A DNA stretch of 64,000 nucleotides, taken from the NCBI GenBank assembly GCA_020444265.1, contig JAHLLH010000002.1:297033-361032 (forward strand), written 5' to 3'. Each line of letters begins with the position of its first letter. The first letter of the stretch is position 1. Made by a program: the position numbers and the translations under genes. Below the pieces are notes generated by a model. That model did no database searches, had not been told where the DNA came from, and worked only from the letters and a program-made list of their open reading frames with translations. This stretch comes from a bacterium. Its GTDB lineage: Bacteria; Electryoneota; Electryoneia; Electryoneales; Electryoneaceae. Shown one piece after another: positions 10,955-53,073 of this stretch.

Positions 10955-13900
10955 ATGAACAAGCGTTACGTACACAGTATTTTCCGATCGATTGCTTCTG
11001 CACGCCCTGACTCCGTCGCCATCCGGTCAGCAGAAGGCGAGATTCGCTATGCCGACCTGCTGACCCGTGTGGATCAGCTCGCCGTCCGAATCCGTGGACA
11101 AGGAATCGGCGACGGCTCTTTTGTCGCCATCGATCTTCCTGAAAGCATCGACCTTGTCGTCTCGATGCTCGCAGCCTGGAGTTGCGGAACCGTCTATTTC
11201 CCCATCGGTCAGGAATGGCCGGAAGCACGGACCCGTTCCCTCCTCGAGCGAGTCAGTCCCGCATTGGTGCTTTGTCTTGAGAAGGATGCCGGAAAGCTGG
11301 AGCGGCTTCTCGCCGCAGGAAACCCATCTGGCTACCGTCCGAACATCCTGCTTGTTGATAATCCGCCCGCTAGCACCTCCTCGCCACAGACCGAGGAATC
11401 GCAATTCAATACGAATGGCGACGGGGACGAAGATGCTTACCTGTTGTTTACCTCCGGTTCGACCGGGGAGCCGAAAGGCATCCTGGGACGGCACAAAAGC
11501 CTGAGCCATTTCATTCATTGGGAGATGAAGGAGTTCGGGATCGGACCAGAGGATCGTGTCAGCCTGCTCGCACCGCCGACCTTCGATGTCAGCTTGAGAG
11601 ATATGCTGGTTCCACTCCTCTCCGGCGGCTGCCTTTGCATCCCGCCAGAGGGGGTGAAACGGTCGCCGGGTCGTCTTCTCGAATGGCTCGAGCGGGAAGA
11701 GGTCACAACGATCCACTTGGTGCCATCGCTGATGAGGTTGCTGGAACAGGAGGCGCGTGACCAGAATGCCTCCACCTCACTACGTGCGGTGAAGCATCTG
11801 CTTCTGGCTGGGGAGCCGCTCTTTGGTGCGGACGTGAACCGTTGGCGCGAGACCTTCGGGGACTCGATGGAGTTGGTGAACCTCTACGGTCCTTCCGAAT
11901 CGACCCTCGCGAAACTCTACCAGCGCATCGAAGAGGGTCCACTCCCTTCCGAGAAAATGGTCCCGGTTGGAAAACCGATCAGCAACACTGCGGTGTTGAT
12001 TTTGCGAGATGGTGCCCTCTGCCGTATCGGCGAAGAGGGCGAAGTTCATATCAAAACACCGTTCCTGAGCAACGGTTACTTCGGCCTGCAGGAAGCGAAC
12101 CGCGCGAGCTTTGTGGACAACCCTTTGAACCCGGAAGAAGAGGATATCCTCTTCCGGACGGGTGACCTGGGCTGTTACCTGCCGGATCGAAGTGTCGTGC
12201 TTCACGGCCGCCTGGATATGCAGGTTAAAATTCACGGCAACCGTGTTGAGCCCGGCGAGATTGAGAGCTTGCTGGTTTCGTACGAGGGAATCCAGCAAGC
12301 CGCGGTGCTACCCGAGGAACAGGTGGATCACTCCTGGTCCTTGAGTGCCTTTTATACCAGCGATGGGGAGCTCAACGGGGAGGAACTCGGCGATTGGCTC
12401 GGCCAGCATCTGCCCGCCTACATGGTCCCCGGTCGGTTCTTCAGGTTGGATTCCCTGCCGTTGACCAGCCATGGAAAAATGGATCGCCACGCTCTGACCA
12501 AGCTCTCCCGTGAACGGCAACAGGAACAGGAATACCTCGCCCCCGAGACGGAGGCAGAACTCATCCTTGCCGAGATATGGCGGGAGGTGATCGGGCTTGA
12601 TCGTGTGGGGGCCAGCTCCCATTTCTTCGAGATCGGAGGGCATTCACTCCACGCTATCCGTGTGGTGGCGCGTCTGCAACGAGCCACGGGTATCGAATTG
12701 TCGATCCAACAGCTCTTCGGCCACCCAGTACTGCGGGATTGTGCCACTCTTCTGGATAGCCTGACACCGAAAACCGAAGCGACTATTCCGCATCTACCCG
12801 ATAGCGAGGAAGGCTATCCTCTCTCGCCTTCCCAGCGTCGCCTCTGGACCCTCTTTCAGATTGATCCCGGATCTCTCGCTTACACCATTCAGAGCGGGAT
12901 TCGTCTGGAGGGTGAACTCGATCAGCAGAGCCTCCGCACCGCGTGGCAGATGTTGGTCGAGAGGCATGAAGTGCTGCGCAGCCGGTATGTGCTGGTGGGG
13001 GACGAACCACGTATGAAGGTCGATCCGCCTCGAGCAGAGCTGCCGATGGTTGACCTCTCCAGCGAGGTTGATCCCGAAGCCACAGCCACCATCGAGATGG
13101 AGCGTTTGTCCGGCAAACCCTTTGATCTCACCACTGGGCCGCTTGTGCGTATCGCGCTCTACCGGATCGGTGAAGAGAACCACCTCCTCGCCTTGCAACT
13201 GCATCACATCGTGGCCGATGCCTGGTCGCTGGATGTCCTCGCCGGGGAGTTGCAGCAGCTCTACAACAGCCTCCGCAGTGGAGAGGATACCGACCTGCCT
13301 GCCCTCCCCTTCCACTACCGGGACTATGCTTCCTGGGCACGGGATCGTCTCCAGCAGCAAGGAGTTGAAACATCGCTCGGCTACTGGACACGGAAGCTGG
13401 CGGATGCGCCGGTCCCCGCTGAATTGCCCGGGGATCGAACACGGCCCATGCGTCGCTCCTTCAAGGGCGGAACCATCTTCCGCTCTTTGGACCAGGCGAC
13501 GCAAAACTCCCTTGAATCGGCGAGTCGACGATATGGAACGACTCCCTTTTCTATCCTGCTGACAGCGTTAAAGGTACTGGTCTACCGTCTAAGCGGGGAG
13601 CGTGATGTCATTGTCGGCACCACCGTCGCCAACCGTACGATTCCCGAGCTCGAAAACCAGGTAGGGTTTTATGTCAATACCCTCGCCCTCAGGGACCAAC
13701 TCCATCCGGATCAAGGTTTCGCAGAGCTGATTCAAGCTGTATCACAGACCGTTCGGGATGGTTTCGCACAACAGGACCTTCCCTTCGACAGCGTTGTTGA
13801 AGCGCTGGATTTGCCACGCGACCTCGCACGCAACCCGTTATTCGATATCGCCCTGATCCATCATGCGGACCGTGTGACCTCCATCGAGATGGATGGCTTG

Positions 13901-16900
13901 AAGGCGGCCCCAATCCCCGTTGAAGAGCAATCGGCCAAGTATGATCTCCTGATCTCTTTCGAACAGCGGCACGGCGAATGGATGCTGGAGGCGAACTACA
14001 GCAGCGACCTGTACGACCCCGAAACGGTAGAACGTCTGCTGGACCTCCTGACGACCACCCTTTCGACAGGTGTGGCGCAGCCGGACACCCCGATTGGCGA
14101 TCTGCCTCTGCTTTCGGGCACTCATCTTGAACAGGTGCAATCCTTCGGGGTTGGCGAACAACGACCCGAGTGGCTTGGCAAAACGGTGCCGGAAATATTC
14201 CTGCGGCAAGTGGGCCGGACACCCGATGCGACTGCTTTGATCAAGGGATCGAGTTCATGGTCCTATGCAGAGTTGCAACGTGACATGCAACGAATATCAA
14301 CGTGGCTGAGGGCGGAAAAGGTCGAGCATGGCTCGGTGATCGGTGTGCAGTGTGAACGCTCCCCGGAAGGGATCGCCGCCCTGCTCGCCATCTTGCAGGC
14401 GGGATGTGTTTACCTCCCGCTTGAGCCGGATCTGCCCGCCGAACGGCTTGCCTGGATGCTCCGCGACTCCGGTTGCAAACTGGTTTTGCATGACGGCTGT
14501 TCCACAGCAGCCATACCGGATGATGTCAACCGTGTTGCCCTGTCTGCGATGAAGAATAATGGAGTTGACGGCGAGTCATCTTCACCGGGTTCCAGCGACC
14601 TTGCCTACATCATCTACACCTCCGGGACGACGGGTACTCCGAAAGGGGTGATGGTCGAGCATGGTGGTTTCTGCAACATGATCGCAGCCCAGATTGAAGC
14701 GTGGGAAGTGGCGCCGGCATCACGGGTGCTGCAATTCGCCTCGTGGGGATTTGATGCGGCGTTGTCTGAAATCTTCATGGCCCTCTTCTCCGGCGCGGCC
14801 CTTGTGCTCGCAGATCGCGACACCCTGCTCGAACCAGACCAGTTCGCCCGGCTGATGGAACGTGAGCAGATTACCACGGCTACCCTTCCACCGGTGTACC
14901 AGGCCGCACTCGGCAAGCGATCCTTCCCCTCTCTGCGCACGCTGATATCCGCAGGTGAAGCAGCAGAGCCTTCGCTGTTGGCTTTTCACAGCGAGACAGC
15001 GACTTGCTGGAATGCGTACGGCCCAACCGAGTGCAGTGTCTGCGCCACGATGTACCGCTACAGCCCAGCTGGACAGTCCCGCATGGTTCCTATCGGCTCA
15101 CCCATCCCGAATGGCGAGGCGCTTGTCCTCGATGCGCGCGGCAATCTGCTCCCGGTGGGAATTCCGGGAGAGCTTTGCCTCGGCGGTGTGGGAGTTGCCA
15201 GGGGCTATCTGAATGATCCGGAACGAACCAAACGCCTTTTCCCACCCCACCCTGTCGGGGTGGAGGGCCAACGTATCTACCGGACAGGGGATCGTGTACG
15301 CTGGCTCGCCGATGGAAATCTTGAGTACCTGGGACGAATCGACAATCAGGTAAAGATTCGAGGCCATCGTGTCGAACCCGCCGAGGTCAGCCGTCACCTT
15401 CTCGACCATCCGTCCATTGCCGATGCAGTCGCCGCTCCTCTGGGGAGTGATTCCGGGGGGGAGTTGGTCGCCTGGACTCGCACGAGGAGGCGTCCTGAAC
15501 TATGGCCGTCTGTGGCCGAGTTTTATGTCTACGACGACATCCTCTACCGAGCGATGTACACGGATGAGGAGCGAAACAGCCGTTATCGGGCGGCCTTTGA
15601 AGCCGCGCTTCCGGGCAAGACCGTTCTTGAAATCGGCCCCGGTCCTGTAGCCATTCTGGCGAGGATGGCGATTGAGGCGGGAGCACGAAAAGTGTATGCC
15701 GTCGAGCTGCTGGAAGAGTCCTGGCGCAAGGCAAAAGCACGTGTCGCCGAGCTGGGGTTGCAGGATCAAATCGAGCTGATTCACGGGGACATTCGAACCG
15801 TCACCCTGCCCGAAAAGGTGGATGCCTGTATCTCGGAAATCGTCGGAGCGATTGGCGGGTCCGAAGGGTCCGCGAAGCTGATCAATGAAGCGCGTCGCTT
15901 CCTGAACGACCCTGCCGCGATGATTCCTTCTCGCAGCCTGACCTGGATGGCGGCGATGGAACTGCCCGATGATCCAGACCTGCTTCAGCTTCCCGACATC
16001 GCCACCCACTACATCAGCCGGATTTTCGAGGAAGCCGGACGACCATTCGATCTGCGCATGAGCTTGAAACATGTCGATTCCAGCCTGCTCCTGAGCGATC
16101 GCGGTCCGATTGAGGACCTCGACTATACCCGGCCGGTGCCGTTGGAAGCGAGCCACAAGGTTGAGCTCGAGGTGAAGCGGGACGGTATCTGTCATGGCAT
16201 CCTGGCGTGGATGGAGCTCTTTACCGACCCGGATCATTCCATCGACATTCTCGAGCATGCGGGGAGCTGGCTCCCGGTCTTCCTGCCGCTTTCGGACGAG
16301 CCCTTTGAGGTGCGTGCGGGTGATTCCCTGCATGGTCGTGTCGATCGAACACTTTATGAGAACGGGTTAAATCCCGAGTTCACGGTCAAGGGGGAACTTC
16401 ACCGTGAAGGGTCGCTGGTGCAGCGGTTCACGGTCGAGGCGAAACATATTTCGCCCGGATTCCGCACCACACCCTTCCATCATGACCTGTTTGATGAAAA
16501 GGGACTTGTCCGTAGCATTCCTGAGGCGAATGCCACCGGCCTTCGCCGTTTTTTGCAGGATCGTCTGCCGGACTATATGATTCCGTCACGGTTTATTGAG
16601 GTCGAGTCCATTCCGCAGACCGCGCATGGCAAGGTGGACTTCGAGGCGCTGCGGGTCCTCGCGGCGGAGGAGACGCATGAAATCGCATCGAAACCGCCGG
16701 TAACAGAGAAGCAACAGACCATTGCCGAGGTGGTTGAGCAGGTGACAGGTTCACACCTTCCGGGCGTGGACCAGGATCTGTTCGCCTACGGTCTCGATTC
16801 GATTCGAGCCATTCAGATGGTTGCCCGTTTAAAGGAAGCGGGGCTGCATTTGGACGTGCGGGATATCTTTAATCATCCTACGATTGAACGCCTTGCGGAG

Positions 16901-18340
16901 ATCGCTCGCGAGAGTGGTCGTTCGATCGACCAGGGGCCGGTGACCGGTAACGTTCCTCTTGGGCCGATCCAGGAATGGTTCTTCGACACGCACCATGCTT
17001 GCCCTCACCATTTCAACCAGTCGATGCTACTCGCACCCTCTGAACCACTTGATACTCCCAGCTTGCAGGCAACCCTCGACTCTTTGGTGGATCATCATGA
17101 TGGCTTGCGTCTCGTGGTCAAGCAGGGGGTTGATCAACCAGAGCTGGTGATCCAGCCGTTCAACAAGGCTCACCTCGTTGAGGTTGATCTGCGGGGAGAG
17201 GAGGATGCGTTATCCGCCATGCAGGATCGAGCGCAGCAGCTCCAGTCCGATTGTGATCTCGACAGGGGACCGCTTTTCCGTGCCGTCCTGTTCCACCTCC
17301 CGAAAGCGGACCGTTTGCTGCTCATCGCGCACCATCTCCTTGTTGATGGAATTTCCTGGCGCATTCTGCTCGAAGATCTCGAGCGCGGGTATCGAATGGC
17401 AATGGAGGGCGATACTCCCATATTCGCCGCAAAAACGGACTCGTTGATCACATGGATGGACGCTTTGCAGGCGGCTGCCGATACTGGCGAGTTCGAAGAG
17501 GAACGTTCCTTCTGGACCAGCATGAATCAAGCGGACGTCCAGCCACTTCCACATGCTAGCAGCGATGGCCAAGCCGCGACACGAGCCGACAGCGAGGTGC
17601 TTCATGCTTCGCTCGAGGTGGAGCAGACTCATCTTCTATTGACGGCTGCCCTGGGTCGCTACGGTACCGAGACGACCGACCTGCTCCTCACCGCTCTGCT
17701 TCGCGCTTTGAAGCAATGGACAGGAACTGGTCAGGCACGGCTTGCCTTGGAAGGGCACGGACGTGAAGAGCTGTTTGATGACGTTGATGTCACACGTACT
17801 GTTGGATGGTTTACCTCGCTCTACCCAGTGCTGCTGGATATTGATGAATCCGAAGAGATCGGCTGGCAGGTACGAACCATCAAGGAATCACTCCGCGCTA
17901 TTCCCAACCGTGGCATAGGCTATGGGGTTCTGCGCTACCTGGCTGATCCACCTCTTTTCAGCAGCCCAGCTTCTGCAATCAGTTTCAATTACCTGGGACA
18001 GACCGGCACGAGCGACAGGGATACTTTTTTCCAAATGTCCGATGAACCGGCCGGTCTCGAGATTGGCTTGAAATCGGAACTCGAAGCAGAGATCGCCCTT
18101 GTCTGTGCTGTTGTTAAAGGTGAACTCCGAATCGACCTACGCTTCAACCGGACACTTTTTACCCATCGGGCGATGGAAAGGCTGCTGGAAGACTGGATTG
18201 GGGAGTTACGTTCCCTCATCCAACATTGCATGGAATCAGGGGAGCGTGAACTGACGCCGAGCGATTTGACCTACGATGGTTTTTCCATGCAGGAACTCGA
18301 TGACTTCCTTGACGATATTGATCTCGGGGAAGAGGAGTAG
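10955..18340 (+). CDS. NRPS: A-PCP-C-A(with embedded SAM-dependent methyltransferase)-PCP-E
   Basis: A1: LFTSGSTGEPKGI, NLYGPSEST, A10 LTSHGKMDR. PCP GGHSLHAIRV. C: HHIVADAWS. A2: YIIYTSGTTGTPKGV, NAYGPTECSV, YRTGDRVRW...IRGHRVEPAEV. A ~370 aa insertion carrying Rossmann SAM motif VLEIGPGPVAILARMA follows, before A10 (IPQTAHGKVD). PCP YGLDSIRAIQ. E: AHHLLVDGISWRIL. Acidic C-terminal tail. Confidence 0.9.
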   Translation: MNKRYVHSIFRSIASARPDSVAIRSAEGEIRYADLLTRVDQLAVRIRGQGIGDGSFVAIDLPESIDLVVSMLAAWSCGTVYFPIGQEWPEARTRSLLERVSPALVLCLEKDAGKLERLLAAGNPSGYRPNILLVDNPPASTSSPQTEESQFNTNGDGDEDAYLLFTSGSTGEPKGILGRHKSLSHFIHWEMKEFGIGPEDRVSLLAPPTFDVSLRDMLVPLLSGGCLCIPPEGVKRSPGRLLEWLEREEVTTIHLVPSLMRLLEQEARDQNASTSLRAVKHLLLAGEPLFGADVNRWRETFGDSMELVNLYGPSESTLAKLYQRIEEGPLPSEKMVPVGKPISNTAVLILRDGALCRIGEEGEVHIKTPFLSNGYFGLQEANRASFVDNPLNPEEEDILFRTGDLGCYLPDRSVVLHGRLDMQVKIHGNRVEPGEIESLLVSYEGIQQAAVLPEEQVDHSWSLSAFYTSDGELNGEELGDWLGQHLPAYMVPGRFFRLDSLPLTSHGKMDRHALTKLSRERQQEQEYLAPETEAELILAEIWREVIGLDRVGASSHFFEIGGHSLHAIRVVARLQRATGIELSIQQLFGHPVLRDCATLLDSLTPKTEATIPHLPDSEEGYPLSPSQRRLWTLFQIDPGSLAYTIQSGIRLEGELDQQSLRTAWQMLVERHEVLRSRYVLVGDEPRMKVDPPRAELPMVDLSSEVDPEATATIEMERLSGKPFDLTTGPLVRIALYRIGEENHLLALQLHHIVADAWSLDVLAGELQQLYNSLRSGEDTDLPALPFHYRDYASWARDRLQQQGVETSLGYWTRKLADAPVPAELPGDRTRPMRRSFKGGTIFRSLDQATQNSLESASRRYGTTPFSILLTALKVLVYRLSGERDVIVGTTVANRTIPELENQVGFYVNTLALRDQLHPDQGFAELIQAVSQTVRDGFAQQDLPFDSVVEALDLPRDLARNPLFDIALIHHADRVTSIEMDGLKAAPIPVEEQSAKYDLLISFEQRHGEWMLEANYSSDLYDPETVERLLDLLTTTLSTGVAQPDTPIGDLPLLSGTHLEQVQSFGVGEQRPEWLGKTVPEIFLRQVGRTPDATALIKGSSSWSYAELQRDMQRISTWLRAEKVEHGSVIGVQCERSPEGIAALLAILQAGCVYLPLEPDLPAERLAWMLRDSGCKLVLHDGCSTAAIPDDVNRVALSAMKNNGVDGESSSPGSSDLAYIIYTSGTTGTPKGVMVEHGGFCNMIAAQIEAWEVAPASRVLQFASWGFDAALSEIFMALFSGAALVLADRDTLLEPDQFARLMEREQITTATLPPVYQAALGKRSFPSLRTLISAGEAAEPSLLAFHSETATCWNAYGPTECSVCATMYRYSPAGQSRMVPIGSPIPNGEALVLDARGNLLPVGIPGELCLGGVGVARGYLNDPERTKRLFPPHPVGVEGQRIYRTGDRVRWLADGNLEYLGRIDNQVKIRGHRVEPAEVSRHLLDHPSIADAVAAPLGSDSGGELVAWTRTRRRPELWPSVAEFYVYDDILYRAMYTDEERNSRYRAAFEAALPGKTVLEIGPGPVAILARMAIEAGARKVYAVELLEESWRKAKARVAELGLQDQIELIHGDIRTVTLPEKVDACISEIVGAIGGSEGSAKLINEARRFLNDPAAMIPSRSLTWMAAMELPDDPDLLQLPDIATHYISRIFEEAGRPFDLRMSLKHVDSSLLLSDRGPIEDLDYTRPVPLEASHKVELEVKRDGICHGILAWMELFTDPDHSIDILEHAGSWLPVFLPLSDEPFEVRAGDSLHGRVDRTLYENGLNPEFTVKGELHREGSLVQRFTVEAKHISPGFRTTPFHHDLFDEKGLVRSIPEANATGLRRFLQDRLPDYMIPSRFIEVESIPQTAHGKVDFEALRVLAAEETHEIASKPPVTEKQQTIAEVVEQVTGSHLPGVDQDLFAYGLDSIRAIQMVARLKEAGLHLDVRDIFNHPTIERLAEIARESGRSIDQGPVTGNVPLGPIQEWFFDTHHACPHHFNQSMLLAPSEPLDTPSLQATLDSLVDHHDGLRLVVKQGVDQPELVIQPFNKAHLVEVDLRGEEDALSAMQDRAQQLQSDCDLDRGPLFRAVLFHLPKADRLLLIAHHLLVDGISWRILLEDLERGYRMAMEGDTPIFAAKTDSLITWMDALQAAADTGEFEEERSFWTSMNQADVQPLPHASSDGQAATRADSEVLHASLEVEQTHLLLTAALGRYGTETTDLLLTALLRALKQWTGTGQARLALEGHGREELFDDVDVTRTVGWFTSLYPVLLDIDESEEIGWQVRTIKESLRAIPNRGIGYGVLRYLADPPLFSSPASAISFNYLGQTGTSDRDTFFQMSDEPAGLEIGLKSELEAEIALVCAVVKGELRIDLRFNRTLFTHRAMERLLEDWIGELRSLIQHCMESGERELTPSDLTYDGFSMQELDDFLDDIDLGEEE

Positions 18341-18356
18341 TTAATCAGGGGGGGGG

Positions 18357-19307
18357 ATGGACTACACGTTGACCATGAACGACCTGAAGCGCCTCACCGG
18401 CTTCAGCGCCCCGGAGGTACGGGACCGTCTCGCTCGCGATCACAGCATCGAGCTGACACCCTCCGATTTGACGGTACCTCCCCACGCCGTGCGGGCACTG
18501 CTCGGTTCCCTCGGGGTGGCTTACAAGCCCAAAACAATCGCCTTTGTCAACCTGAAGGGCGGGGTCGGCAAAACCATTTCCGCGATCACCTTTGCATCCC
18601 GGGCAGTGCAGTATGGATTCAAAACCTGCCTGATCGACATGGATTCCCAGGGGTCAGCATCCCTGGCGTTCGACAGTGAACCGGCGGAAGACGACCCCAT
18701 TTTTTACGATGTGTGGCAGAAACCGGGGAAGATGGTCCTGCCCTCTCTGCATCAAATCGGAGATGGGTTTTACCTGCTTCCCTCCTCGCTTGACAATGCC
18801 CTGCTCGATGCAGCCCTTGCCAATCCAGCCGCTCAGAAAAGTGCGGTGCAGGGCGTGTGCGACGAACTCTACCGGGGCGGATTCGACCTGGTCGTGATTG
18901 ATTGTCCACCCTCCCTCGGCACAGCAGTCATCTCGACCATCAGTGCGGCAGACAGTCTTGTTATTCCGTTGGCCAACGACCCCTATTCCTCAAAAGGGTT
19001 GGCACTTACGCTGGCAGAAAGCCGTTCGATCCGCTCCACTTTTGGACTACCCGAACCGAATGTTCATATCCTCTTCACACGCTACGATAAACGTGAGCGG
19101 CTTACCGAAGAGGCACATCGCTACCTCAAGAAACACCACAAGAAAAATCTGTTGCCGGTTGTGATACCGACCAGCACGCGATATGCACAGGCTCTGGCAC
19201 GACGCGAAACGGTTTTTGCACCGGGGGATTACCGTGAGGCGAGGAAGCCCTACGATCTCCTGACACGCCATCTACTGGCGATTTTTCCTTCGAAAGGGGG
19301 GAAGTAA
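18357..19307 (+). CDS. ParA/MinD-family (deviant Walker A) ATPase with ~55 aa N-terminal extension
   Basis: KGGVGKTISAITFA deviant Walker A. DMDSQGS and VIDCPPSLG motifs typical of ParA/MinD/Soj. N-terminal extension LTMNDLKRLTGFSAPEVRDRLAR may be HTH-like. G9 tract directly abuts the ATG. Confidence 0.8.
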   Translation: MDYTLTMNDLKRLTGFSAPEVRDRLARDHSIELTPSDLTVPPHAVRALLGSLGVAYKPKTIAFVNLKGGVGKTISAITFASRAVQYGFKTCLIDMDSQGSASLAFDSEPAEDDPIFYDVWQKPGKMVLPSLHQIGDGFYLLPSSLDNALLDAALANPAAQKSAVQGVCDELYRGGFDLVVIDCPPSLGTAVISTISAADSLVIPLANDPYSSKGLALTLAESRSIRSTFGLPEPNVHILFTRYDKRERLTEEAHRYLKKHHKKNLLPVVIPTSTRYAQALARRETVFAPGDYREARKPYDLLTRHLLAIFPSKGGK

Positions 19308-19308
19308 C

Positions 19309-20052
19309 ATGGCAGATGACCATCCTGATAAACCAAAAGTGAACCGGTCGAGACGGCGGCCCTACGAACAGGCTGCAGCCGGTGGCACCAAGAAACGTCC
19401 AGCGAAAGCCACGGGGTCGCGTCCGAAAACGACGAAGAAGATCGCTTCTCGTCCAACCCGTAGCACCAAATCAGGATCAGGCAACGCACCAAAGCCGAAA
19501 ACGGAAGCGGCTGTGGAAGCGACACCCCTTGAGACCAAAGCAGGCCCGGCACCAGATATCGGCAATTCGATCAAGGTGGTTGAGGTAGAGGAGCCGTTGA
19601 CGCCGAAAGCGGACAAGGTGGTAAGAAACCATGTGATCGCCTCGATGGGGTTTGGCCTGATTCCGATTCCTATCGTTGATATCGCTTCCCTGATCCCGGT
19701 CCAGATGTCCCTGGTCGCCGAATTGGCAGAACTGTATGGCTGTTCTTACAAACGCGACCGGGATCGGTCGGTAATGGCAGGCGTTTTGACAGGCATCCTC
19801 TCCCATCATTTTGCCTCCGGCAAGTACCGTTTCCTCGTTCACACCATTCCTGTGGTTGGACCGCTGCTCAGCATGGCCACCTTCCCGGTATTCGCCGGCG
19901 CAAGCACCTATGCGGTCGGGAAGGTCTTCATTCAGCACTTCGAAACAGGTGGCACGTTGCTCGATTTCAAACCGGAAAAGGTGAAAAGCTTTTTCCGTGA
20001 ACAGTACGAGCAGGGGAAACGTTTCGCCTCTGGCGTGAAGACCGGGAAATAG
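19309..20052 (+). CDS. Hypothetical protein: highly basic Lys/Arg/Pro-rich N-terminus plus conserved C-terminal hydrophobic domain (DUF697/YcjF-like, tentative)
   Basis: Starts 1 nt after parA-like stop; stop overlaps next NRPS start. N-terminal ~100 aa is rich in K/R/P/T. C-terminal domain (GFGLIPIPIVDIASLIPVQMSLVAELAELYG ... ATYAVGKVFIQHFETGGTLLDF) is paralogous to 29077..29571. Resemblance to E. coli YcjF is from memory only. Confidence 0.6.
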   Translation: MADDHPDKPKVNRSRRRPYEQAAAGGTKKRPAKATGSRPKTTKKIASRPTRSTKSGSGNAPKPKTEAAVEATPLETKAGPAPDIGNSIKVVEVEEPLTPKADKVVRNHVIASMGFGLIPIPIVDIASLIPVQMSLVAELAELYGCSYKRDRDRSVMAGVLTGILSHHFASGKYRFLVHTIPVVGPLLSMATFPVFAGASTYAVGKVFIQHFETGGTLLDFKPEKVKSFFREQYEQGKRFASGVKTGK

Positions 20053-23000
20053 ATGGCCGACCGGAAGAACATTCAGGATCTTTATCCGCTGACTCCGCTT
20101 CAGGAAGGGATGCTGTTCGAGGCTAATCTCGACACAGCATCGAGTGCCTACTTCCAGCAGATGACGATGTGGCTGAGCGGAGAGCTTGATCCGGATCTCT
20201 TCGAACAGGCGTGGAACGAGCTGATTGACCGTCACGACATCCTGCGAACCGCATTTATTCAGAGTGGCGGCAAACGACCGATGCAGGTGGTCTTGCGGAA
20301 ACGCCCGCTCATGTTGCACGTCAAAGATTTGACTGCCCTCAGCGACGACGAAGCACGTGACCATGTGGACTCTGTTGCCCTCGAGCAACGGAGGCGCCCC
20401 TTCGATCTCGCACGAGATGTTCTCCTGCGGCTTCACCTCTTCCGTCTGTCCGGCCAACGATGGTCCTTGCTCTTCTCGTTCCATCATATCCTGATGGATG
20501 GCTGGTGTTTTCAAATCCTGTTCAAGGAATTACGTGAGCTCTACACGGCCCTGATCGAGGGGCGATCCGCATCGCTTCCGCCGGTCGAACCGTTCGGTCG
20601 TTTTGTCAAGTGGCTGGAAAAGCTGCGCAGTGAAGATGATTTGTCCTGGTGGCGTGAACAACTGAAGGGGATCGAAAGTCCGACCCTGCTGCCATCCGCC
20701 CGAGGCGACCAGAGCGAAAAAGGGTCCTATCGGCTTGAACGTCATACGCTGACACTCGGTGAGGATGAGAGTCTGGCTTTGAGATCGCTCGCGGCTAGGA
20801 ACTCGGTCACCTTGAGTAACCTTGTGCGTGCGCTGTGGGCGCTTTTCCTGCGCGGACATGGCGCTGAAGAAGAGGTTGTATTCGGGACAACGCTCGCGGG
20901 ACGGTCCATCGACCTTCCGGGGATTGAGCGGATGATCGGCCTCTTTATCAACACCGTGCCCGTGCCGATTCGGGTGAGCAGGGGCGAGTCATTCTCCTCC
21001 CTACTGAAACGAGTGCAGGAACAGTCCTTCGAGCAGGATCAACACCAGTATCTCTCCCTTGCGGATATCCAGAGCGTCAGCAGCTTGAAACGCGATCTGA
21101 TCAACCACCTGCTCATCTTCGAAAACCTCCCGGAAGAGGAGGGGGATGCAGACAGATCGTTCCTTCCCGGGCTGGACCTGCTCGACTCCTCAACCTTTGA
21201 GCAGACGCAGTATGATCTCGAAGTGTCGGTCTTTCCGAGGCAACACCTTTCGATACGTTTCGCTTACAATGCGAACCGTTTCACCGCGAACGACATCCAC
21301 CATTTTTCGCAACGGTTTGAAGCTCTCGCACGGTCGGCAATAAGCTTGGGTGATGTATCCCTTGACCGGATTGACCTTGTGCCGGACGAGGAGCGCAAGT
21401 GGCTTAAAGGGGTAGATGAGGTTGGTAGCGGCGCGAAACCGTTCAAAACTCTGACCGAACTGTTTGCCGAACAGGTCGATCAACGACCCGATGAAACCGC
21501 CGTCATCGCCGGGGAAAACCGATTCAGTTTCCAGCAGCTTGATCAACTCGTGGACCGAGTTGCCGGACGACTTCTTGAGAGTGGTCTTGATGCAGGGGAA
21601 CGGGTAGCCCTGTTGCTGCATCGCAGCGAGTGGCTGCCGGCGGGGATGATAGGCGTATTGAAGGCGGGTGGGGCATGGGTGCCCATTGATCCGGACTATC
21701 CAGACGCGCGCATTCGGACCATCCTTGACCAGGCGGGGGTACGTTTGGCACTGGTGGACGACCCGCAGGAATGGCAGGATCGCATGGGTGCTGGTCTCGA
21801 CTGGGTCGGTGTGCACGAGTTGCCCGAGAAGCCCAGCCCGATCCTGCCACCGGATGACCCGAAGAGCTTAGCCTATGTCACTTTCACATCCGGTTCCACC
21901 GGCGAGCCAAAAGGTGTGATGGTTGGCAGGGACAACCTTGCTGCGTTCTCCCGCAACCTGACGGATCGTTTCGGGATGGTGCCCGGCGACATTATCTACG
22001 CTGTCACAACCCATACCTTCGACATTTCCATCCTTGAACTCCTCTGCACCCTGCTCAACGGTGTCACGGTTGTGATCGCCTCCCGTGAGTCAACTTCGGA
22101 TGCAACACACATCCTCGAAGAGATCGCGGAGCATGAGGCAACCCTGCTACAGATGACCCCTTCCCACCTGGGGATGATTCTCGAGGGACTTCCGATCCTC
22201 CCGCACCTGCACACCCTGCTGATCGGGGGCGAACCTCTTCCTGCTGACCTGCATGATGAGCTCTGCACGCTACCGGGAAAACGCCTGTTTAATGTGTACG
22301 GTCCTACCGAGACCACGATCTGGTCAACCGCGAAGGAAATCAGGCGGGGCCAGCAGACGATCGGCACTCCGCTCGCGGGGGAACGTGTTGTTGTGCTGGG
22401 CTGGAACGGCTTTCCTGCACCAACAGAGGTGCCCGGAGAAATCTGCGTAGGCGGGTCCGGCGTGTCGAGGGGGTACATCGGAAACCCCGGCATGACAGCT
22501 GAACGATTCATCGATGATCCGGACAAACCCGGTGAAACTCTTTATCGTACCGGGGATCGTGGACGTCGTCTCCAGAATGGGGAGGTCGAGTTCTTCGGAC
22601 GGCTTGATAATCAACTCAAAGTGCGTGGTTACAGGATTGAACCAGGCGAGATCGAGGCGCACATCGCTCGTCTTGAAGGTGTTCTGGAAACCATCGTGGT
22701 TCAGATTGAAGATGGTGAAGGATCGTCTGCGCTGGTCGCATTCTATACCGGGCTTCACGTCTATGATGAAGCCACCATACGGCGTGAGCTGACCCCCTAC
22801 CTGCCGATCTACATGATTCCGTCCCGTTTTATCTACCTCGACCAGATGCCCTTAACTCACGCCGGGAAGGTCGACCGGAAGGCGCTTGTTGTCAGCGATG
22901 CGGCACGTCGATCTTCCATCCGCCCCTTCGATATCCCGCGCACGGAACTCGAATGGACCATTCTACGCATCTGGGAAGAGGTGCTGAACCAGCCGAGAAT

Positions 23001-26000
23001 CGGGATTCACGATTCCTTCCTCGAAATCGGTGGTCACAGCCTGAAGGCGATGCAAATCGTTTCGCGTCTTCGCAAAGATGCGGGTGTGTCGGTATCCGTC
23101 GGCGAACTGTTGGAATCGGGGACGGTTGCAGCTCTCGCTGAAAGAGTACGACTGGCCGGCTGGACAGCCTACAAGTCCATCCCGCATCTGCCGAAATCTG
23201 GGACAAGCGAGCTATCACACGCGCAAAGACGGTTGTACGTCCTCGAAAAACTGGCGGAGGGGGGCTCCTCGGCCTACATCCTTCCCAGTCTGACCCGCTT
23301 GCAGGGCAAGCTTGACCTCACGGCACTGTCCGAAGCCTTCCGGATCCTCGTTCAGCGTCATGAATCCCTGCGGACTCGATTTGTCATTGTTGACGGCGAA
23401 CCTCGTCAGGAGGTGGTGGAGGTCAGGGACTTCGACGTCGCACAGGTTGATTGTCGAACAAAGCCCGACCCGGAAGCATGGGCCCTCAAAGAGGCTCATG
23501 CCCGTTTGAACCACCCCTTTGATCTCGCGCGAGCACCCTTGTTCGATGTCACCCTCTTTCGGCTGGACGAGGAGGAGTGGCTGCTCTATACACGCATGCA
23601 TCACATCATTACCGATGCTGGGTCGATGGCAATCCTTGAGCGGGAATTGGTCGCCTGCTATGATGCCTTCTCGAACGGATCCGCTCCTTTGCTTCCTGAT
23701 CCGGAGGTTCGCTATCGCGACTTTGCCTCCTGGCAGACAAACCTGCTTGAGGATGAACAGGGTAATAATCACCGTGATTATTGGCTGAAAACCTTGCGGG
23801 ATGTTTCGTTGCTAGACCTGCCTGCCGACCGGCAACGTCCTGCCAGTCAGGATGTAAGTGGGGATACCGTACAAGTCGAGCTTGGGGAAGAGACCGTTCG
23901 AAAGCTTGTTGCCCTGGGTCAGGACGCCAACGTTTCTCTGTTCACGACGATGATGGCGGTGACCAGTCTTTTCCTGAAACGGTTGACCGGGGAAGAGGAT
24001 ATCCTGCTCGGCACTCCCGTCAGCGGTCGTGACCACCCCGATCTCGATCGAGTCGTCGGCTTCTTCGCCAACACTCTTCCCTTGCGGACGCGATTTGAGG
24101 GTATTGAACGGTTTCGTGATCTGCTCGAGCATGCTGGACGTGTTGTTCGTTCCGCGATGGACCATGCGCTCTATCCCTTTGATCGACTGGTGGATGATCT
24201 CGAGCTCCAGCGCGACCTGAGTCGTCCCCCGCTGGTCTCGGTGATGCTCTCCCTCGATGAAGTGGAGCAAGAGCCGACGCTACCGGGTGTCGAAAGCCAG
24301 CATGTACCGTTGACTTCCACTATCAGCCGTTTCGACCTCACCATCGAGGCTCTGCGTCGCGATGGCGACCTCCGCATTGGGTTGAACTACTCCACAGCCC
24401 TGTTTGACCGGGCGACAGTGGAACGGTGGGCTCAATGGCTTCAGCAACTCCTTGCCTCGATCCTCGATTCGCCGGAAAGACCTCTTTCATCGCACGCAAT
24501 GCTGTCCGGCAGCGAACTGGCCATGCTCAAGGAGAAATCCTCAGGCGTGTTTAAGCCCATCGATCCTGCGACCAACCTGGTCAGCCTGTTTGAGGCATCG
24601 GTTGATCGAGACAATGACCGTAGTGCGGTACGTTGGGGCGGAGCGGATTGGACCTATGGCAAGCTGGACAGTGAGGCAAATCGTATCGCCCATGCGCTTG
24701 CCGAACTCGGTATCGAAAAAGGGAATGTTGTCGCTTCGCTGCATGACCGATCTGCCCAGGCGGTAGCGGCAACATTGGGAATTCTCAAGGCGGGTGGGGT
24801 ATTGCTCCCCTTGCGTACGGACGACCCTGTGGAACGGGTCCAGGGAATGCTCAGGGAATCGGGATGCCGGGTGGTGGTCTGTGAACCGAGGTACACCGAG
24901 ACTGCATCACATTTCCAGAATGTTCGGCTTCTGACAGCAACCATGTGGGCATCGATGCCGGAGCATCGTCCGGTGGGCACCCTTGATGGGAACGATCTCG
25001 CCTACCTGATTTTCACCTCGGGATCGACCGGTACTCCCAAGGGTGTGCTGGTGGAGCATGGCGGTTTCTGCAACATGATCCGTGACCAGATCGAGCGGTT
25101 CGGAGTTCGATCCGAGGATCATGTCCTGCAGTTCGCACCTCTTTCCTTCGATGCGTCCCTGTCGGAAATCTTCATGGCCTTGCTGGCAGGAGCTGCCCTT
25201 GTACCCGTATCAAGCGAGGTAATCGCAGACCCACAACAATTTACTGGGTTCCTTGAGGGCGAATCCATCACGGTTGCAACCCTGCCGCCCTCCTACCTGA
25301 CCCTGCTTGACCATCAGGCGGTAGCGAGATTGAAGGTGCTGATCACTGCTGGTGAAGCGCCCATCCAGAGGGATGCTGAGGCGTTGCGGGAGAAACTACG
25401 CTACTTCAATGCCTATGGCCCGACCGAATCTTCTGTCTGTGCGACCATGCAGGAGATTCTCCCCGACCTCGACCTGTCGCGTGGGGTCCCAATGGGGTCT
25501 CCGGTCGCAAACATGCGTCTCTATTTGCTGGATCATGATTTGGTTCCTGTCGGTCCCGGTGTTCCCGGCGAGATAGCTCTTGCTGGACCCGGTTTGGCTC
25601 GAGGCTACCTGAACCACCCGGACGTGTACGAGAAAGCCTTTCTGCCCGATCCCTTCTACACCGGCGAAAGGATGTATCGAACCGGGGATCTGGCAAAACG
25701 ATCTCCTGATGGGGAGCTGATCTACCTGGGCCGTCGCGACGAGCAATTGAAGGTGCGTGGTCAACGGATGGAGCTTGGGGAAATTCGCCACCATCTTCTC
25801 GCCCTCCCAGGTGTGCGAGATGCTGCACTGCTTCCTTTCCCGGAACGGGGTCCCATCACAGGTGTCACCGGCTGGCTTGCCGGGGTCGAACCGGACCAGC
25901 TTCCGGCACACCTTCATCTGCTGAAGGATAATCTCCCGGAAAGCATGATTCCCGGCCAACTGATCGCGGTTGAGACCTTGCCATTAACCCCGCAGGGGAA

Positions 26001-27561
26001 GCTTGACAAGAAGGCCTTGCTGGCGATGAGGGGAACCGGTGCTGAGGCGACTGTCACGGCGGCCGGACTTCGTGGAGTGCTGCTCGAGGAGTACCGGCGA
26101 ATCCCCGGGTTGGAATCCATCGGGCTGGATCAATCGTTTTTCGCGGCTGGAGGCAACTCCCTCGGTGCGATTCAACTGGCAACCTGTCTGTCCGAAAGGC
26201 TCGAGCGACCGGTGGGAGTGCGCGCGCTGTTTCAGCATCCGACGATCAACTCGCTTGCAAACCACCTGGAGCAGGATGATGAGGAAAATCCCTTGCCAGT
26301 CCATGTCCAGAGTGCTTCGCTCCACTCCCCAAAAAGCTCTCTCGTTGAGGTGGTCGATACACCCCTGTACGAACAGTTCCGTCAAGGGGTTGTCGCACCA
26401 GTTGATGCGGCGGCTGTTGGCTATTTCACCCAGGAGATGCTTACTGCAACGGGTTATTCACACGAGGAGTTTCTGGCTCGTGCAGGGGACAAACCAGTGC
26501 TCAGCAATATCATTTCGTCGCCTCATGGACGAATCGCCTTCTTCACCCTCCCCCTGTTTACGGCCGATCTTTTCCGTGCTCCTGCTCACGTTCTCGATCT
26601 TCTCTCCCAAACCCTCACCATGGCAGGCGAGATGGGCGCTCGGATGGTTTCGTTGACGGGGTTGATTCCCTCTGCAACCGGGTACGGGCGTGATCTGTTG
26701 GAACGTGCGAAAAACCACCCGGAATGGCCAGATGTGACGACCGGTCATGCTACCACGGCGGCAACGGTTCTACTCTCTATCGAACGTATTCTGCACGAGA
26801 CAGGACGTTCACTGGAAGACGAAAAACTGGGGTTGCTAGGCCTTGGGTCTGTCGGAACCTCGATGATGAGGTTGATTCTAGCTTCAATGCCACACCCCAA
26901 AGAACTACTATTATGTGACTTAGAGAGTAAAAGCGACCATCTGAATAAGCTCGAGCAGGAAGCGAAAGAAACGTATCAATATTCTGGAAAAATTGAAAAA
27001 GTAATTTCTCAATTAGAAGTTTCTGATGCATTTTACTCCTCTTCCCTTATTGTCGGGGCGACAAGTATTCCGGATATCCTGTCTGTCTCAAAATTGAGTC
27101 CGGGTACACTTGTTGTGGATGACAGCGGTCCACATTGTTTTTCTGCCGACGATGCTGCTGACCGTATTTCTCGCACGGGCGATGTCTTGTTTACGGAAGC
27201 AGGGGGGTTACGGACGAGCACACCCTTTGGTGTTCAAGCCTGGCTTCCCGATTTTCTGCTTGATTGGATGAGTCAACACGATATCCGTCCCTACGAGGGG
27301 TTTGACACTCACGAAATCACGGGTTGCGTGTTGTCGTCCTTGTTGACAGAACGTGAGCAAAAGCTCACCCGGACCGTGGGGCAGCCCAGCGTGGAAGAAT
27401 GCCTGGACCACTTGCACGCATTGCGAGCGTGGGAGATGACAGCAGCTCCTCTCAAGTTCGGAGATATAAAGATCGGAAGCGACGAGATCAGACGTTTTCT
27501 GCGTGGCCAGCAAAAGGCTGGGCAGCATGTTACGCAGAGTGGAGTACATACAACATCCTGA
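20053..27561 (+). CDS. NRPS: C-A-PCP-C-A-PCP plus non-canonical C-terminal NAD(P)-binding-like domain (no TE)
   Basis: C: HHILMDGWCFQ. A: YVTFTSGSTGEPKGV, NVYGPTETTIW. PCP: IGGHSLKAMQ. C: HHIITDAGS. A: YLIFTSGSTGTPKGV, NAYGPTESSVCATM. PCP: AAGGNSLGAIQ. Final ~420 aa has a glycine-rich Rossmann-like motif GLLGLGSVGTSMMRLI and no GxSxG thioesterase motif. Confidence 0.9.
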   Translation: MADRKNIQDLYPLTPLQEGMLFEANLDTASSAYFQQMTMWLSGELDPDLFEQAWNELIDRHDILRTAFIQSGGKRPMQVVLRKRPLMLHVKDLTALSDDEARDHVDSVALEQRRRPFDLARDVLLRLHLFRLSGQRWSLLFSFHHILMDGWCFQILFKELRELYTALIEGRSASLPPVEPFGRFVKWLEKLRSEDDLSWWREQLKGIESPTLLPSARGDQSEKGSYRLERHTLTLGEDESLALRSLAARNSVTLSNLVRALWALFLRGHGAEEEVVFGTTLAGRSIDLPGIERMIGLFINTVPVPIRVSRGESFSSLLKRVQEQSFEQDQHQYLSLADIQSVSSLKRDLINHLLIFENLPEEEGDADRSFLPGLDLLDSSTFEQTQYDLEVSVFPRQHLSIRFAYNANRFTANDIHHFSQRFEALARSAISLGDVSLDRIDLVPDEERKWLKGVDEVGSGAKPFKTLTELFAEQVDQRPDETAVIAGENRFSFQQLDQLVDRVAGRLLESGLDAGERVALLLHRSEWLPAGMIGVLKAGGAWVPIDPDYPDARIRTILDQAGVRLALVDDPQEWQDRMGAGLDWVGVHELPEKPSPILPPDDPKSLAYVTFTSGSTGEPKGVMVGRDNLAAFSRNLTDRFGMVPGDIIYAVTTHTFDISILELLCTLLNGVTVVIASRESTSDATHILEEIAEHEATLLQMTPSHLGMILEGLPILPHLHTLLIGGEPLPADLHDELCTLPGKRLFNVYGPTETTIWSTAKEIRRGQQTIGTPLAGERVVVLGWNGFPAPTEVPGEICVGGSGVSRGYIGNPGMTAERFIDDPDKPGETLYRTGDRGRRLQNGEVEFFGRLDNQLKVRGYRIEPGEIEAHIARLEGVLETIVVQIEDGEGSSALVAFYTGLHVYDEATIRRELTPYLPIYMIPSRFIYLDQMPLTHAGKVDRKALVVSDAARRSSIRPFDIPRTELEWTILRIWEEVLNQPRIGIHDSFLEIGGHSLKAMQIVSRLRKDAGVSVSVGELLESGTVAALAERVRLAGWTAYKSIPHLPKSGTSELSHAQRRLYVLEKLAEGGSSAYILPSLTRLQGKLDLTALSEAFRILVQRHESLRTRFVIVDGEPRQEVVEVRDFDVAQVDCRTKPDPEAWALKEAHARLNHPFDLARAPLFDVTLFRLDEEEWLLYTRMHHIITDAGSMAILERELVACYDAFSNGSAPLLPDPEVRYRDFASWQTNLLEDEQGNNHRDYWLKTLRDVSLLDLPADRQRPASQDVSGDTVQVELGEETVRKLVALGQDANVSLFTTMMAVTSLFLKRLTGEEDILLGTPVSGRDHPDLDRVVGFFANTLPLRTRFEGIERFRDLLEHAGRVVRSAMDHALYPFDRLVDDLELQRDLSRPPLVSVMLSLDEVEQEPTLPGVESQHVPLTSTISRFDLTIEALRRDGDLRIGLNYSTALFDRATVERWAQWLQQLLASILDSPERPLSSHAMLSGSELAMLKEKSSGVFKPIDPATNLVSLFEASVDRDNDRSAVRWGGADWTYGKLDSEANRIAHALAELGIEKGNVVASLHDRSAQAVAATLGILKAGGVLLPLRTDDPVERVQGMLRESGCRVVVCEPRYTETASHFQNVRLLTATMWASMPEHRPVGTLDGNDLAYLIFTSGSTGTPKGVLVEHGGFCNMIRDQIERFGVRSEDHVLQFAPLSFDASLSEIFMALLAGAALVPVSSEVIADPQQFTGFLEGESITVATLPPSYLTLLDHQAVARLKVLITAGEAPIQRDAEALREKLRYFNAYGPTESSVCATMQEILPDLDLSRGVPMGSPVANMRLYLLDHDLVPVGPGVPGEIALAGPGLARGYLNHPDVYEKAFLPDPFYTGERMYRTGDLAKRSPDGELIYLGRRDEQLKVRGQRMELGEIRHHLLALPGVRDAALLPFPERGPITGVTGWLAGVEPDQLPAHLHLLKDNLPESMIPGQLIAVETLPLTPQGKLDKKALLAMRGTGAEATVTAAGLRGVLLEEYRRIPGLESIGLDQSFFAAGGNSLGAIQLATCLSERLERPVGVRALFQHPTINSLANHLEQDDEENPLPVHVQSASLHSPKSSLVEVVDTPLYEQFRQGVVAPVDAAAVGYFTQEMLTATGYSHEEFLARAGDKPVLSNIISSPHGRIAFFTLPLFTADLFRAPAHVLDLLSQTLTMAGEMGARMVSLTGLIPSATGYGRDLLERAKNHPEWPDVTTGHATTAATVLLSIERILHETGRSLEDEKLGLLGLGSVGTSMMRLILASMPHPKELLLCDLESKSDHLNKLEQEAKETYQYSGKIEKVISQLEVSDAFYSSSLIVGATSIPDILSVSKLSPGTLVVDDSGPHCFSADDAADRISRTGDVLFTEAGGLRTSTPFGVQAWLPDFLLDWMSQHDIRPYEGFDTHEITGCVLSSLLTEREQKLTRTVGQPSVEECLDHLHALRAWEMTAAPLKFGDIKIGSDEIRRFLRGQQKAGQHVTQSGVHTTS

Positions 27562-31559: not shown

Positions 31560-31576
31560 AACGGAGCAGCGACATC

Positions 31577-34086: not shown

Positions 34087-34132
34087 AGATGTGTTATCGA
34101 ATCTCGACTTACGAGCGGTAAGAGGCAACCGG

Positions 34133-34891: not shown

Positions 34892-34895
34892 GCTC

Positions 34896-52935: not shown

Positions 52936-53073
52936 GGAAGAAGAGTAGCACATGATCTCAGCTTTGATACATTTTGCATCGATGCGGTTCGTTCGGGGAA
53001 GCGATGTTTCCCCGAACGGTCAGCTCGATCAAACAGCTATCGTCCCGCAGGGACAGGAGAACTTGAGGGGGCT

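Follow-up and report, generated by a model that had tools for sequence, protein, structure and literature searches.

A ParA-type ATPase and a DUF697 protein encoded as a recurrent gene pair within a nonribosomal peptide synthetase operon

ATPases of the ParA/MinD family are the main means by which bacteria place large cargoes, and many of them are 'orphans' without a known partner. They commonly serve envelope machines, as BcsQ does in cellulose secretion, TadZ for Tad pili and FlhG for flagella. Partners such as ParB, MinE and McdB engage their ATPase through an N-terminus that is disordered and positively charged (PMC10241942; PMC11407121). Here we compare with these systems two genes found in a 64,000-nt stretch of DNA from a bacterium of the Electryoneaceae (GenBank assembly GCA_020444265.1, contig JAHLLH010000002.1, positions 297,033 to 361,032), which we call the window. 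An initial annotation, made from the sequence alone, had noted two non-biosynthetic genes on one strand between multi-module nonribosomal peptide synthetase (NRPS) genes, and both are present on the plus strand. Open reading frame (ORF) A (18357..19307, 316 aa) encodes a ParA/MinD-family ATPase of a distinct subfamily, here termed ParA-ext, with a Pfam AAA_31 domain and a Soj-like fold. ORF B (19309..20052, 247 aa) encodes its partner protein, here termed DUF697a, in which a disordered, basic N-terminal half is followed by a helical, hydrophobic DUF697 domain.

To place the pair in a wider context, we assembled 21 non-redundant loci of the ATPase subfamily, including the window, and set the 20 related loci against 77 generic ParA loci (800 kb) as controls. 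The controls came from a metagenome scan in which the subfamily alignment matched generic Walker A patterns; that scan gave three subfamily loci beside the 77 generic ones, and a single-protein scan of genome contigs gave five. A DUF697 gene lies directly beside the ATPase gene in 18 of the 21 subfamily loci, which for the related loci means 17/20, against 0/77 for generic ParA loci (Fisher p = 3e-16). The loci, from metagenome-assembled genomes (MAGs) or isolates, are labelled Spirochaetota, Dissulfurispiraceae, Pseudomonadota, Nitrospinae, Holophagae, Acanthopleuribacter pedis and Desulfonema magnum. Our conclusion is that the pair is a specific, widespread two-gene module, found also outside NRPS contexts. 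Literature searches on DUF697 together with ParA, on DUF697 alone and on ParA-like proteins together with NRPSs returned nothing relevant, and the pair has not been described before.

Near its N-terminus the partner has a short arginine-rich peptide, KVNRSRRRPYE (aa 10-20; 19336..19368, +), with the consensus K-[VI]-x-R-x-R-R-R-Phi-Y-[EQD]. It occurs in all 19 partners encoded next to a ParA-ext gene, with the single R, the RRR and the Y invariant, and these 19 include one protein that is not a DUF697 protein. That exception, from Desulfonema magnum (locus L006, 10968-11507, CP061800.1), carries the peptide on a coiled coil with a C-terminal Recombinase-family segment (Pfam 4.4e-07) and no DUF697 domain, which suggests that the same type of ATPase has there been coupled to another cargo. 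Conversely, DUF697 paralogues that do not adjoin the ATPase gene lack the peptide (one in the window at 29077-29571, two in L007 and one each in L013, L014 and L096), and it is missing from 117 of the 120 nearest DUF697 homologues. Since it is present on a non-DUF697 partner yet absent from non-adjacent DUF697 paralogues, the peptide tracks the ATPase and not the DUF697 domain. Its absence from the paralogues encoded away from the ATPase also leads us to presume that it docks on the ATPase and stimulates it. Given the specific adjacency, the invariant peptide and the general rule of charged partner N-termini, the two genes very probably encode a cognate ATPase-partner pair.

The ATPase itself was assigned to the ParA/MinD family in the initial annotation by its KGGVGKT box, and the profile matches agree (Pfam AAA_31, 3.9e-28, 99 bits against a cut-off of 27; CbiA, 1e-14, 55 against 25.4). 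The deviant Walker A box (aa 67-73; 18555..18575, +) has its signature lysine at K67, followed by K72. Throughout the subfamily the catalytic residues K67/K72, D94/D96 and D182 are kept: among the 18 aligned members K72, D96 and D182 are invariant, and position 67 is K or R in all. The AlphaFold model (predicted local distance difference test (pLDDT) score 88, predicted template modelling score (pTM) 0.90) has as its best match in the Protein Data Bank (PDB) Soj 2bej (Foldseek, E 3e-18, 30-32% identity), and it matches Soj, McdA, ParF and MinD at probability 1.00; in superposition, the core fits Soj, other chromosomal ParAs and McdA best. The protein thus has the residues and the fold of the ParA/MinD family, together with an adjacent partner bearing a charged, disordered N-terminal peptide, and from residues and fold we predict it to be a catalytically intact, Soj-like ParA. 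Scores against a hidden Markov model built from its database relatives are bimodal, at least 404 bits for the subfamily and at most 192 bits for generic ParAs, and the ATPase stays below the curated NCBIfam cut-offs for ParA_partition, RepA, SopA, MinD and BcsQ alike. By these profile scores it belongs to a distinct ParA subfamily.

As between binding to the nucleoid and binding to the membrane, the residues favour the former. The arginine R246 (codon 19092..19094, +) aligns with R189 of Bacillus subtilis Soj, reportedly the arginine by which Soj binds DNA non-specifically; it is found without exception in 18/18 subfamily members, within a conserved basic patch formed by R242, K245 and R246. 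The subfamily alignment contains no conserved C-terminal amphipathic helix, the C-terminus beyond the last core helix being short and not conserved. Because the R189 equivalent is invariant and such a helix is missing, we infer a nucleoid-binding ParA-type rather than a membrane-binding MinD-type ATPase. With MinD/MinE the window pair shares the ATPase family, a short N-terminal peptide in the partner and an association with a membrane process, but it differs in lacking the conserved membrane-targeting helix, neither MinC nor MinE is encoded nearby, and the MinD model scores far too low (PRK10818, 31.6 against 508). With ParABS (Soj-Spo0J) it shares the best structural match, the same deviant Walker A box and the R189 equivalent. 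It differs in having neither an adjacent ParB nor a conserved parS, the subfamily is absent from the plasmids examined, and the score for ParABS-type ParA proteins is below the cut-off (NF041546, 84 against 180 bits).

An alternative reading is that the pair is simply a DNA-partition or mobile-element maintenance locus amid NRPS genes, with the basic partner acting as a ParB analogue on a centromere, a scenario that the initial annotation had itself named as one that would refute its reading. The linker of the partner is indeed very basic and histone-H1-like in the window clade, the Desulfonema partner has a recombinase-like C-terminal domain, and a parS-like site, TGTTGCACGTCAAAGA (20312-20327, two mismatches), lies 260 nt downstream of the pair. 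However, that site falls inside an NRPS coding region, none of the related loci (273 kb) conserves it, and the three parS matches found in the window at up to three mismatches are what chance gives (18 of 100 shuffles reach three). The pair contains no ParB domain, a search for repeats around it found only short two-copy matches and no array, and a centromere would not fit into gaps of 16, 1 and 0 nt. Among 72,556 plasmids no member of the subfamily was found (best 27% identical), and the source contig of the pair is 750 kb long. In most other lineages the linker is acidic, and the composition of both genes is native to the operon. The partition reading is thus already largely refuted, and we consider it extremely unlikely.

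In front of the Walker A box lies an N-terminal extension (aa 1-58; 18357..18530, +) modelled by AlphaFold as a small beta-alpha-alpha-beta-alpha domain (pLDDT 89-96). That the extension is real follows from the position of the Walker A box, which begins ∼55 aa later than in Soj. It is also a family trait, since the 120 best database relatives of the ATPase (46-76% identity) are of similar size, ∼310-350 aa, and nearly all cover 97-100% of the query. Type Ia ParA proteins such as P1 ParA, SopA and RepA have an N-terminal region of ∼100 aa with a winged helix-turn-helix (HTH) for autoregulation, and the initial annotation had compared the ∼55-aa extension with it. The extension was recovered, but the comparison found no backing in the sequence: the SopA and RepA models score 30.5 against 725 and 52.6 against 348, the extension is ∼58 aa long, and a Pfam scan of ten N-terminal extensions at E<=10 gave nothing significant. 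The modelled domain has a putative HTH-like fold and may be distantly related in structure to the type Ia HTH.

Such an extension could make the ATPase a cluster-specific repressor or activator with the basic partner as co-regulator, in the manner of type Ia ParA autoregulation. Consistent with this are the confident prediction of the beta-alpha-alpha-beta-alpha domain, sub-threshold matches to HTH_17, IF2_N and Mnd1 in some members, and the observation that P1 ParA and V. cholerae ParA2 align with the ATPase over more columns than Soj does. Against it, apart from the low SopA and RepA scores and the lack of a significant Pfam HTH match, the putative recognition helix shows little conservation among subfamily members, as does the sequence of the extension as a whole save for Y3, R46 and Y56; no operator-like repeat was found near the pair genes; and the hydrophobic, membrane-type domain of the partner is unlike a co-repressor. 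Regulation of this kind is, in our judgement, very unlikely.

The extension also shares an octapeptide, ELTPSDLT, with the tail of the upstream NRPS (...IELTPSDLTVPP, 18450-18472, and ...RELTPSDLTYDGF, 18248-18270, respectively). The DNA of this repeat (D1) is 78% identical over 23 nt, and an 8-mer was reached in 1/300 shuffles. Orthologues have only IPTSDKR, LPASDQQ or LPSSEQR at the corresponding place, and L095 and L098 have nothing similar. The sharing is probably due to chance, although it falls at the docking-domain boundary motif of the synthetase, and we set the repeat aside as evidence since it is not conserved in orthologues.

Turning to the partner, the tentative assignment of the second gene to DUF697 is borne out by Pfam (PF05128, 7e-11, 42.6 bits against a gathering cut-off of 27.7). 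The domain (aa 92-237; 19582..20019, +) is all-helical, with two hydrophobic Pro/Gly-kinked stretches (aa 108-135 and 175-200), and aa 98-246 are modelled as a helical domain, the pLDDT reaching 97. Disorder is predicted for the N-terminal 97 aa, which carry a net charge of +10, with 21 K+R in the first 90 aa. The very basic N-terminus pointed out in the initial annotation is therefore real, but the strongly basic linker is specific to part of the window clade (the window, L002 and L003) and is acidic in most other lineages. The window encodes a second DUF697 protein, overlooked in that annotation: DUF697b (29077..29571, +; 164 aa; Pfam 2.1e-13, 50.8 bits against 27.7), which lacks the docking peptide. 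Its identity to DUF697a is 39%, and the domain tree does not place the two as sisters. Because motif-bearing and motif-less copies of one genome are never sisters in that tree, they are old paralogues.

The label 'YcjF-like' given to the partner did not hold, and the same name stands on the deposited ORF B protein. The YcjF family model (TIGR01620) scores 10.9 against 160, no YcjX is present, and hhalign aligns ORF B with Escherichia coli YcjF at a probability of only 28% over 45 columns, in which the first hydrophobic stretch pairs with a hydrophobic helix (aa 207-251) of YcjF, a protein annotated as residing in the inner membrane. The YcjX-YcjF pair of E. coli is nevertheless comparable in its layout, a P-loop NTPase gene beside a gene for a DUF697 membrane protein in a conserved pair. 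It differs in that YcjX is a DUF463 NTPase and not a ParA, and in that YcjF has 353 aa, extra hydrophobic segments and no peptide, its likeness to ORF B being limited to the one hydrophobic helix.

Among known systems, the pair also resembles McdA/McdB, in which a Soj-like ParA is encoded in the operon of its protein cargo and followed by a partner with a disordered, positively charged N-terminus (PMC10241942). McdA structures are also among the best fold matches of the window ATPase. The two systems differ in that the window partner is a hydrophobic DUF697 protein whereas McdB is soluble and forms condensates, in that the window ATPase has an extra N-terminal domain, and in that it is found among genes for peptide synthesis and export, not with those of a microcompartment; the annotated cluster genes (359-40641) include no carboxysome genes. 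What is new here is the partner family, the docking motif and the context, while the mode of working would be like that of known ParA/MinD-partner systems.

The placement of the pair within the operon is tight. Upstream lies an NRPS of domain order A-T-C-A(MT)-T-E (adenylation, thiolation, condensation, methyltransferase and epimerisation; 10955..18340, +), which ends in a terminal epimerisation domain (PIQEWF, HHLLVDGISW) and an acidic docking-type tail, ...ELTPSDLTYDGFSMQELDDFLDDIDLGEEE. A spacer of 16 nt (18341..18356, +) with the G-rich ribosome-binding site GGGGGGGGG precedes the start codon of the ATPase gene. Downstream, the start codon of a second NRPS (C-A-T-C-A-T and a 430-aa terminal domain; 20053..27561, +) abuts the stop codon of the partner gene. 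The gaps are thus 16 nt before the ATPase gene, 1 nt between the pair and 0 nt before the downstream NRPS; the initial annotation had given spacings of 1-17 nt, right in the close packing though not in the exact range. A G-rich ribosome-binding site precedes each of the two genes, and their GC and third-codon-position GC (GC3) contents (0.567/0.644 for the ATPase, 0.556/0.621 for the partner) match those of the flanking synthetase genes (0.566-0.580/0.61-0.66). No promoter-like or terminator-like signals above chance were found around the pair. From the tight gaps, the ribosome-binding sites, the matching composition and the lack of any excess of promoter or terminator signals we conclude that the pair is native to the NRPS operon and is almost certainly co-transcribed with the NRPS genes, as had been suggested from its placement. 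An antisense ORF at 19477-20514 (345 aa) was rejected as a gene, as it recurs only as a shadow of the conserved sense genes.

This linkage to biosynthetic genes recurs. NRPS or polyketide synthase (PKS) clusters accompany the pair in 7 of the 20 related loci and in none of the 77 controls (p = 6e-6). When lineages are counted conservatively and the window clade is set aside, the figure is 4 of 14 (p = 4e-4); that clade comprises L001-L003 and the window with 100% bootstrap support. It is important to note that the deep branches of our neighbour-joining trees of the ATPase and of DUF697 do not have the support needed to count the origins of the NRPS linkage or of the peptide. Related biosynthetic clusters hold the pair at the same position in L001, L002, L003, L095 and L098, the conservation that the initial annotation had looked to. 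L095 and L098 repeat the whole order NRPS-ParA-DUF697-NRPS-beta-lactamase with ATPase identities of only 50% (L095) and 54% (L098) and NRPS identities of 37-39%. L095 also has a gene for a DUF481 protein, and L098 a PKS-aminotransferase gene.

Where the relevant gene ends are available in these loci, the upstream synthetase closes in an epimerisation domain and an acidic tail, and the downstream synthetase opens with ...KN[IV]x[DN][IL]Y[PA]L[TS]P[LM]QEGM. The tail motif TPSD[LI]xYDGF..ELDxFL is present in all five loci that hold the upstream NRPS end (the window, L001, L003, L095 and L098). The downstream NRPS of the window and its L098 orthologue are 2502 and 2499 aa long and align over ∼2,510 columns. 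Because the point of insertion is identical across these loci, the flanking synthetases are, by their end motifs, consecutive subunits of one assembly line, and the arrangement is old.

Accessory genes are shared as well. The beta-lactamase/penicillin-binding-protein-like gene that follows the downstream NRPS (27608..28867, +) is kept alongside the pair in the NRPS-linked loci L008, L095 and L098. The DUF481 gene (35471..36379, +), whose product we take to belong to an outer-membrane family, is co-conserved in L008 and L095, and the type II thioesterase gene (33938..34891, +) also recurs with the module. In L008 (Nitrospirota) an NRPS end is followed by a beta-lactamase-like gene, a phosphopantetheinyl transferase (PPTase) gene and a type II thioesterase gene, and then by DUF697, ParA and DUF481 genes; in L096 a PKS, a motif-less DUF697, a thioesterase and a cyclic-peptide ATP-binding cassette (ABC) exporter are encoded divergently from the ATPase and its partner. 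The module is not an invention specific to NRPSs, as it is also found in other contexts.

Among those contexts, peptide exporters stand out, with genes for them beside the pair in four further loci. L092 and L093 have MacB-type exporters. L007 (660-9373, a Spirochaetota MAG) has three DUF697 genes, one with and two without the peptide, around the ATPase gene, an ABC transporter gene and a C39-peptidase ABC exporter gene; the same components are thus gathered in a compact export locus of bacteriocin type. In L014 three tandem ORFs of 43-44 aa (MKTSIFDMNFVLPPL...; 7808-8236), which look like precursor peptides of a ribosomal natural product, lie directly downstream of the subfamily ATPase gene; upstream of it are an ABC exporter gene and a motif-less DUF697 gene, with no motif-bearing partner before the contig end.

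In the window, too, DUF697 is encoded with an exporter. DUF697b is the first of a triad whose other members are an ABC transporter for the export of cyclic peptides (29913..31559, +; NCBIfam TIGR01194, 349.8 bits against 286.2) and an SPFH/Band 7 (prohibitin-family) protein (31577..32425, +; Pfam Band_7, 5.6e-25). The triad is present in all five alphaproteobacterial plasmid loci examined (L100-L104); Tistrella pTM3 and Azospirillum TSH58 share the window's order of DUF697, ABC and SPFH. An NRPS or NRPS-like synthetase is encoded in four of the five and a thioesterase in three (none found in L102 and L104); a ParA-ext ATPase is encoded in none of them. Thus, on five plasmid loci, DUF697 proteins without the peptide are encoded together with cyclic-peptide ABC exporters and SPFH scaffold proteins. 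The initial annotation had suggested, as one option, spatial organisation or membrane tethering of the megasynthetase; by gene neighbourhood, the likeliest cargo is an export platform at the membrane, made up of DUF697, a cyclic-peptide ABC exporter and an SPFH protein.

We therefore propose, at what we judge to be even chances, that the pair is a cognate ParA/MinD-type system acting on a membrane platform for the export or assembly of the peptide product, with the DUF697 membrane protein as both adaptor and cargo. Using the conserved basic patch around R246, ATP-bound dimers of the ATPase would attach to the nucleoid. DUF697a would dock on the dimer by its arginine-rich peptide and stimulate ATP hydrolysis, as ParB, MinE and McdB do with their own ATPases, while its DUF697 domain would sit in the inner membrane, in association with DUF697b, the ABC exporter and the SPFH protein. 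Set off by the peptide, the ATPase cycle would then place, space or assemble the platform at which the lipopeptide is finished and exported, to which the megasynthetases might be recruited through translation from the same mRNA.

Several points weigh against this proposal. The binding of peptide to ATPase is read from sequence, as are the cargo and the physiological role of the pair; nucleoid binding is deduced from one conserved arginine and its basic patch, and membrane insertion of this short form of DUF697 from hydropathy and the weak YcjF alignment. In L001 (9800-10501), whose cluster is the closest orthologue of the window's (ATPase identity 76%), two in-frame stops divide the partner gene into a 50-aa ORF with the docking peptide and a separate 170-aa DUF697 ORF; decay, an error of assembly or a true partner in two pieces may account for this. 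Neither an NRPS nor an exporter was seen in 9 of the 21 loci within the DNA at hand (e.g. L004, L009-L011 and L097), so the cargo may be broader than a peptide-export platform. Many contigs are short, which limits the neighbourhoods that can be seen, and kinship among loci (L002/L003, L092/L093 and L010/L011) makes the independent events fewer than the locus count.

There are also two further explanations that assign the ATPase a different role. The first is that it is a static assembly or landmark factor like BcsQ, TadZ or FlhG, an ATP-dependent switch that nucleates or licenses the assembly of a membrane secretion machine at a fixed site, for instance a pole, with no nucleoid matrix. The window ATPase is like these proteins in that a family ATPase is dedicated to a membrane export apparatus, a role common among ParA/MinD ATPases; its cargo is associated with exporters, it has weak matches to Pfam CBP_BcsQ and NCBIfam BcsQ, and BcsRQ structures are among its fold matches. 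However, it falls outside these families by curated cut-offs (the BcsQ model gives 52 against 158), its partner is of another family and the exporter is an ABC transporter. The closest folds, moreover, are the nucleoid-binding ParAs Soj and McdA, and the Soj DNA-binding arginine is invariant. A landmark role is thus improbable in our view.

The second is that the components serve producer self-protection or membrane maintenance, the DUF697 proteins and the SPFH protein stabilising or repairing the membrane against a membrane-active lipopeptide, with the ATPase as an NTP-driven assembly switch. YcjX, a P-loop NTPase, and the DUF697 protein YcjF are likewise paired, often adjoining psp membrane-stress operons (PMC3041696). 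The window's triad includes an SPFH protein, and the contexts in which the module is found are all toxin-like peptide export loci. The cluster opens with a KS-AT-ACP-aminotransferase (ketosynthase, acyltransferase, acyl carrier protein and aminotransferase) PKS module and a first NRPS, a start that suggests a membrane-active lipopeptide with a beta-amino fatty acid if, as we presume from iturin-type clusters, such a start has the same outcome here. The remoteness of the relation to YcjF, documented above, counts against self-protection, as does the position of the pair between synthetase genes and not beside the exporter and SPFH genes. The combination of a ParA-type ATPase and a partner bearing a docking peptide is furthermore the hallmark of positioning systems and not of known stress effectors. 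We consider self-protection unlikely.

Returning to the positioning of an export platform, a broader form of that proposal is that the pair is an encoded positioning system for a secondary-metabolite 'factory', in which ATP-driven ParA dynamics would position, space and partition a microdomain of the membrane that holds the DUF697 proteins, the SPFH protein, the exporter and co-translated NRPS/PKS enzymes. This we put forward tentatively, as a possibility that is more doubtful than not. There is a precedent for membrane-organised NRPSs in pyoverdine 'siderosomes', in which the NRPSs are reported to be organised at the membrane and not to diffuse freely (e.g. PMC11172790). If the 'factory' reading were true, assembly lines would be a new class of ParA/MinD cargo, and subcellular organisation would be a heritable, transferable part of a biosynthetic gene cluster. 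To our knowledge, and in the searchable literature, 'siderosomes' have no reported ATPase dedicated to positioning and no reported DUF697/SPFH component.

With these results a sizeable orphan ParA subfamily gains a partner family (DUF697), a precise candidate docking peptide and a likely type of cargo, and DUF697, a widespread and essentially unstudied domain, gains a first functional context. ParA-ext, DUF697a, DUF697b, the cyclic-peptide ABC exporter and the SPFH protein make up a recurrent non-enzymatic accessory set in NRPS/PKS clusters of several phyla. If this set organises or protects the site of production and export, it may be needed for good yields in other hosts, and it would offer a genetic handle on the cellular arrangement of megasynthetases.

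Matches to PADLOC models were insignificant (E 0.004-0.01, 13-15 bits), and an identity as a known anti-phage defence system is not supported. A number of observations were made on the remainder of the cluster. Beyond its last carrier domain, the downstream NRPS continues for 430 aa (26269-27561) without any Pfam match. This region contains a Rossmann-like GLGSVG motif and is matched at E 7e-74 by PDB chains 9e4s and 9e4x ('Amino acid adenylation domain protein'). No paper describing these two PDB entries was found. Further cluster genes encode a substrate-binding protein, the type II thioesterase, a PPTase and the DUF481 protein. The GC content falls from ∼0.57 in the synthetase genes to 0.46-0.53 at 29913-35552 (exporter, SPFH, substrate-binding protein, thioesterase and PPTase), and because it is lower there this accessory half of the cluster may have a history separate from that of the synthetase genes. 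The thioesterase ORF (33938-34891) overlaps the 3' end of the substrate-binding-protein ORF (32422-34086) by 149 nt; its true start probably lies further downstream than called, since the Pfam match begins only at aa 78. Beyond the DUF481 gene, 37573-40641 encodes a protein that combines LVIVD repeats with a sorting tail for type IX secretion, which suggests that the host is a diderm with a type IX secretion system, and four more very large ORFs extend across 40672-56103.

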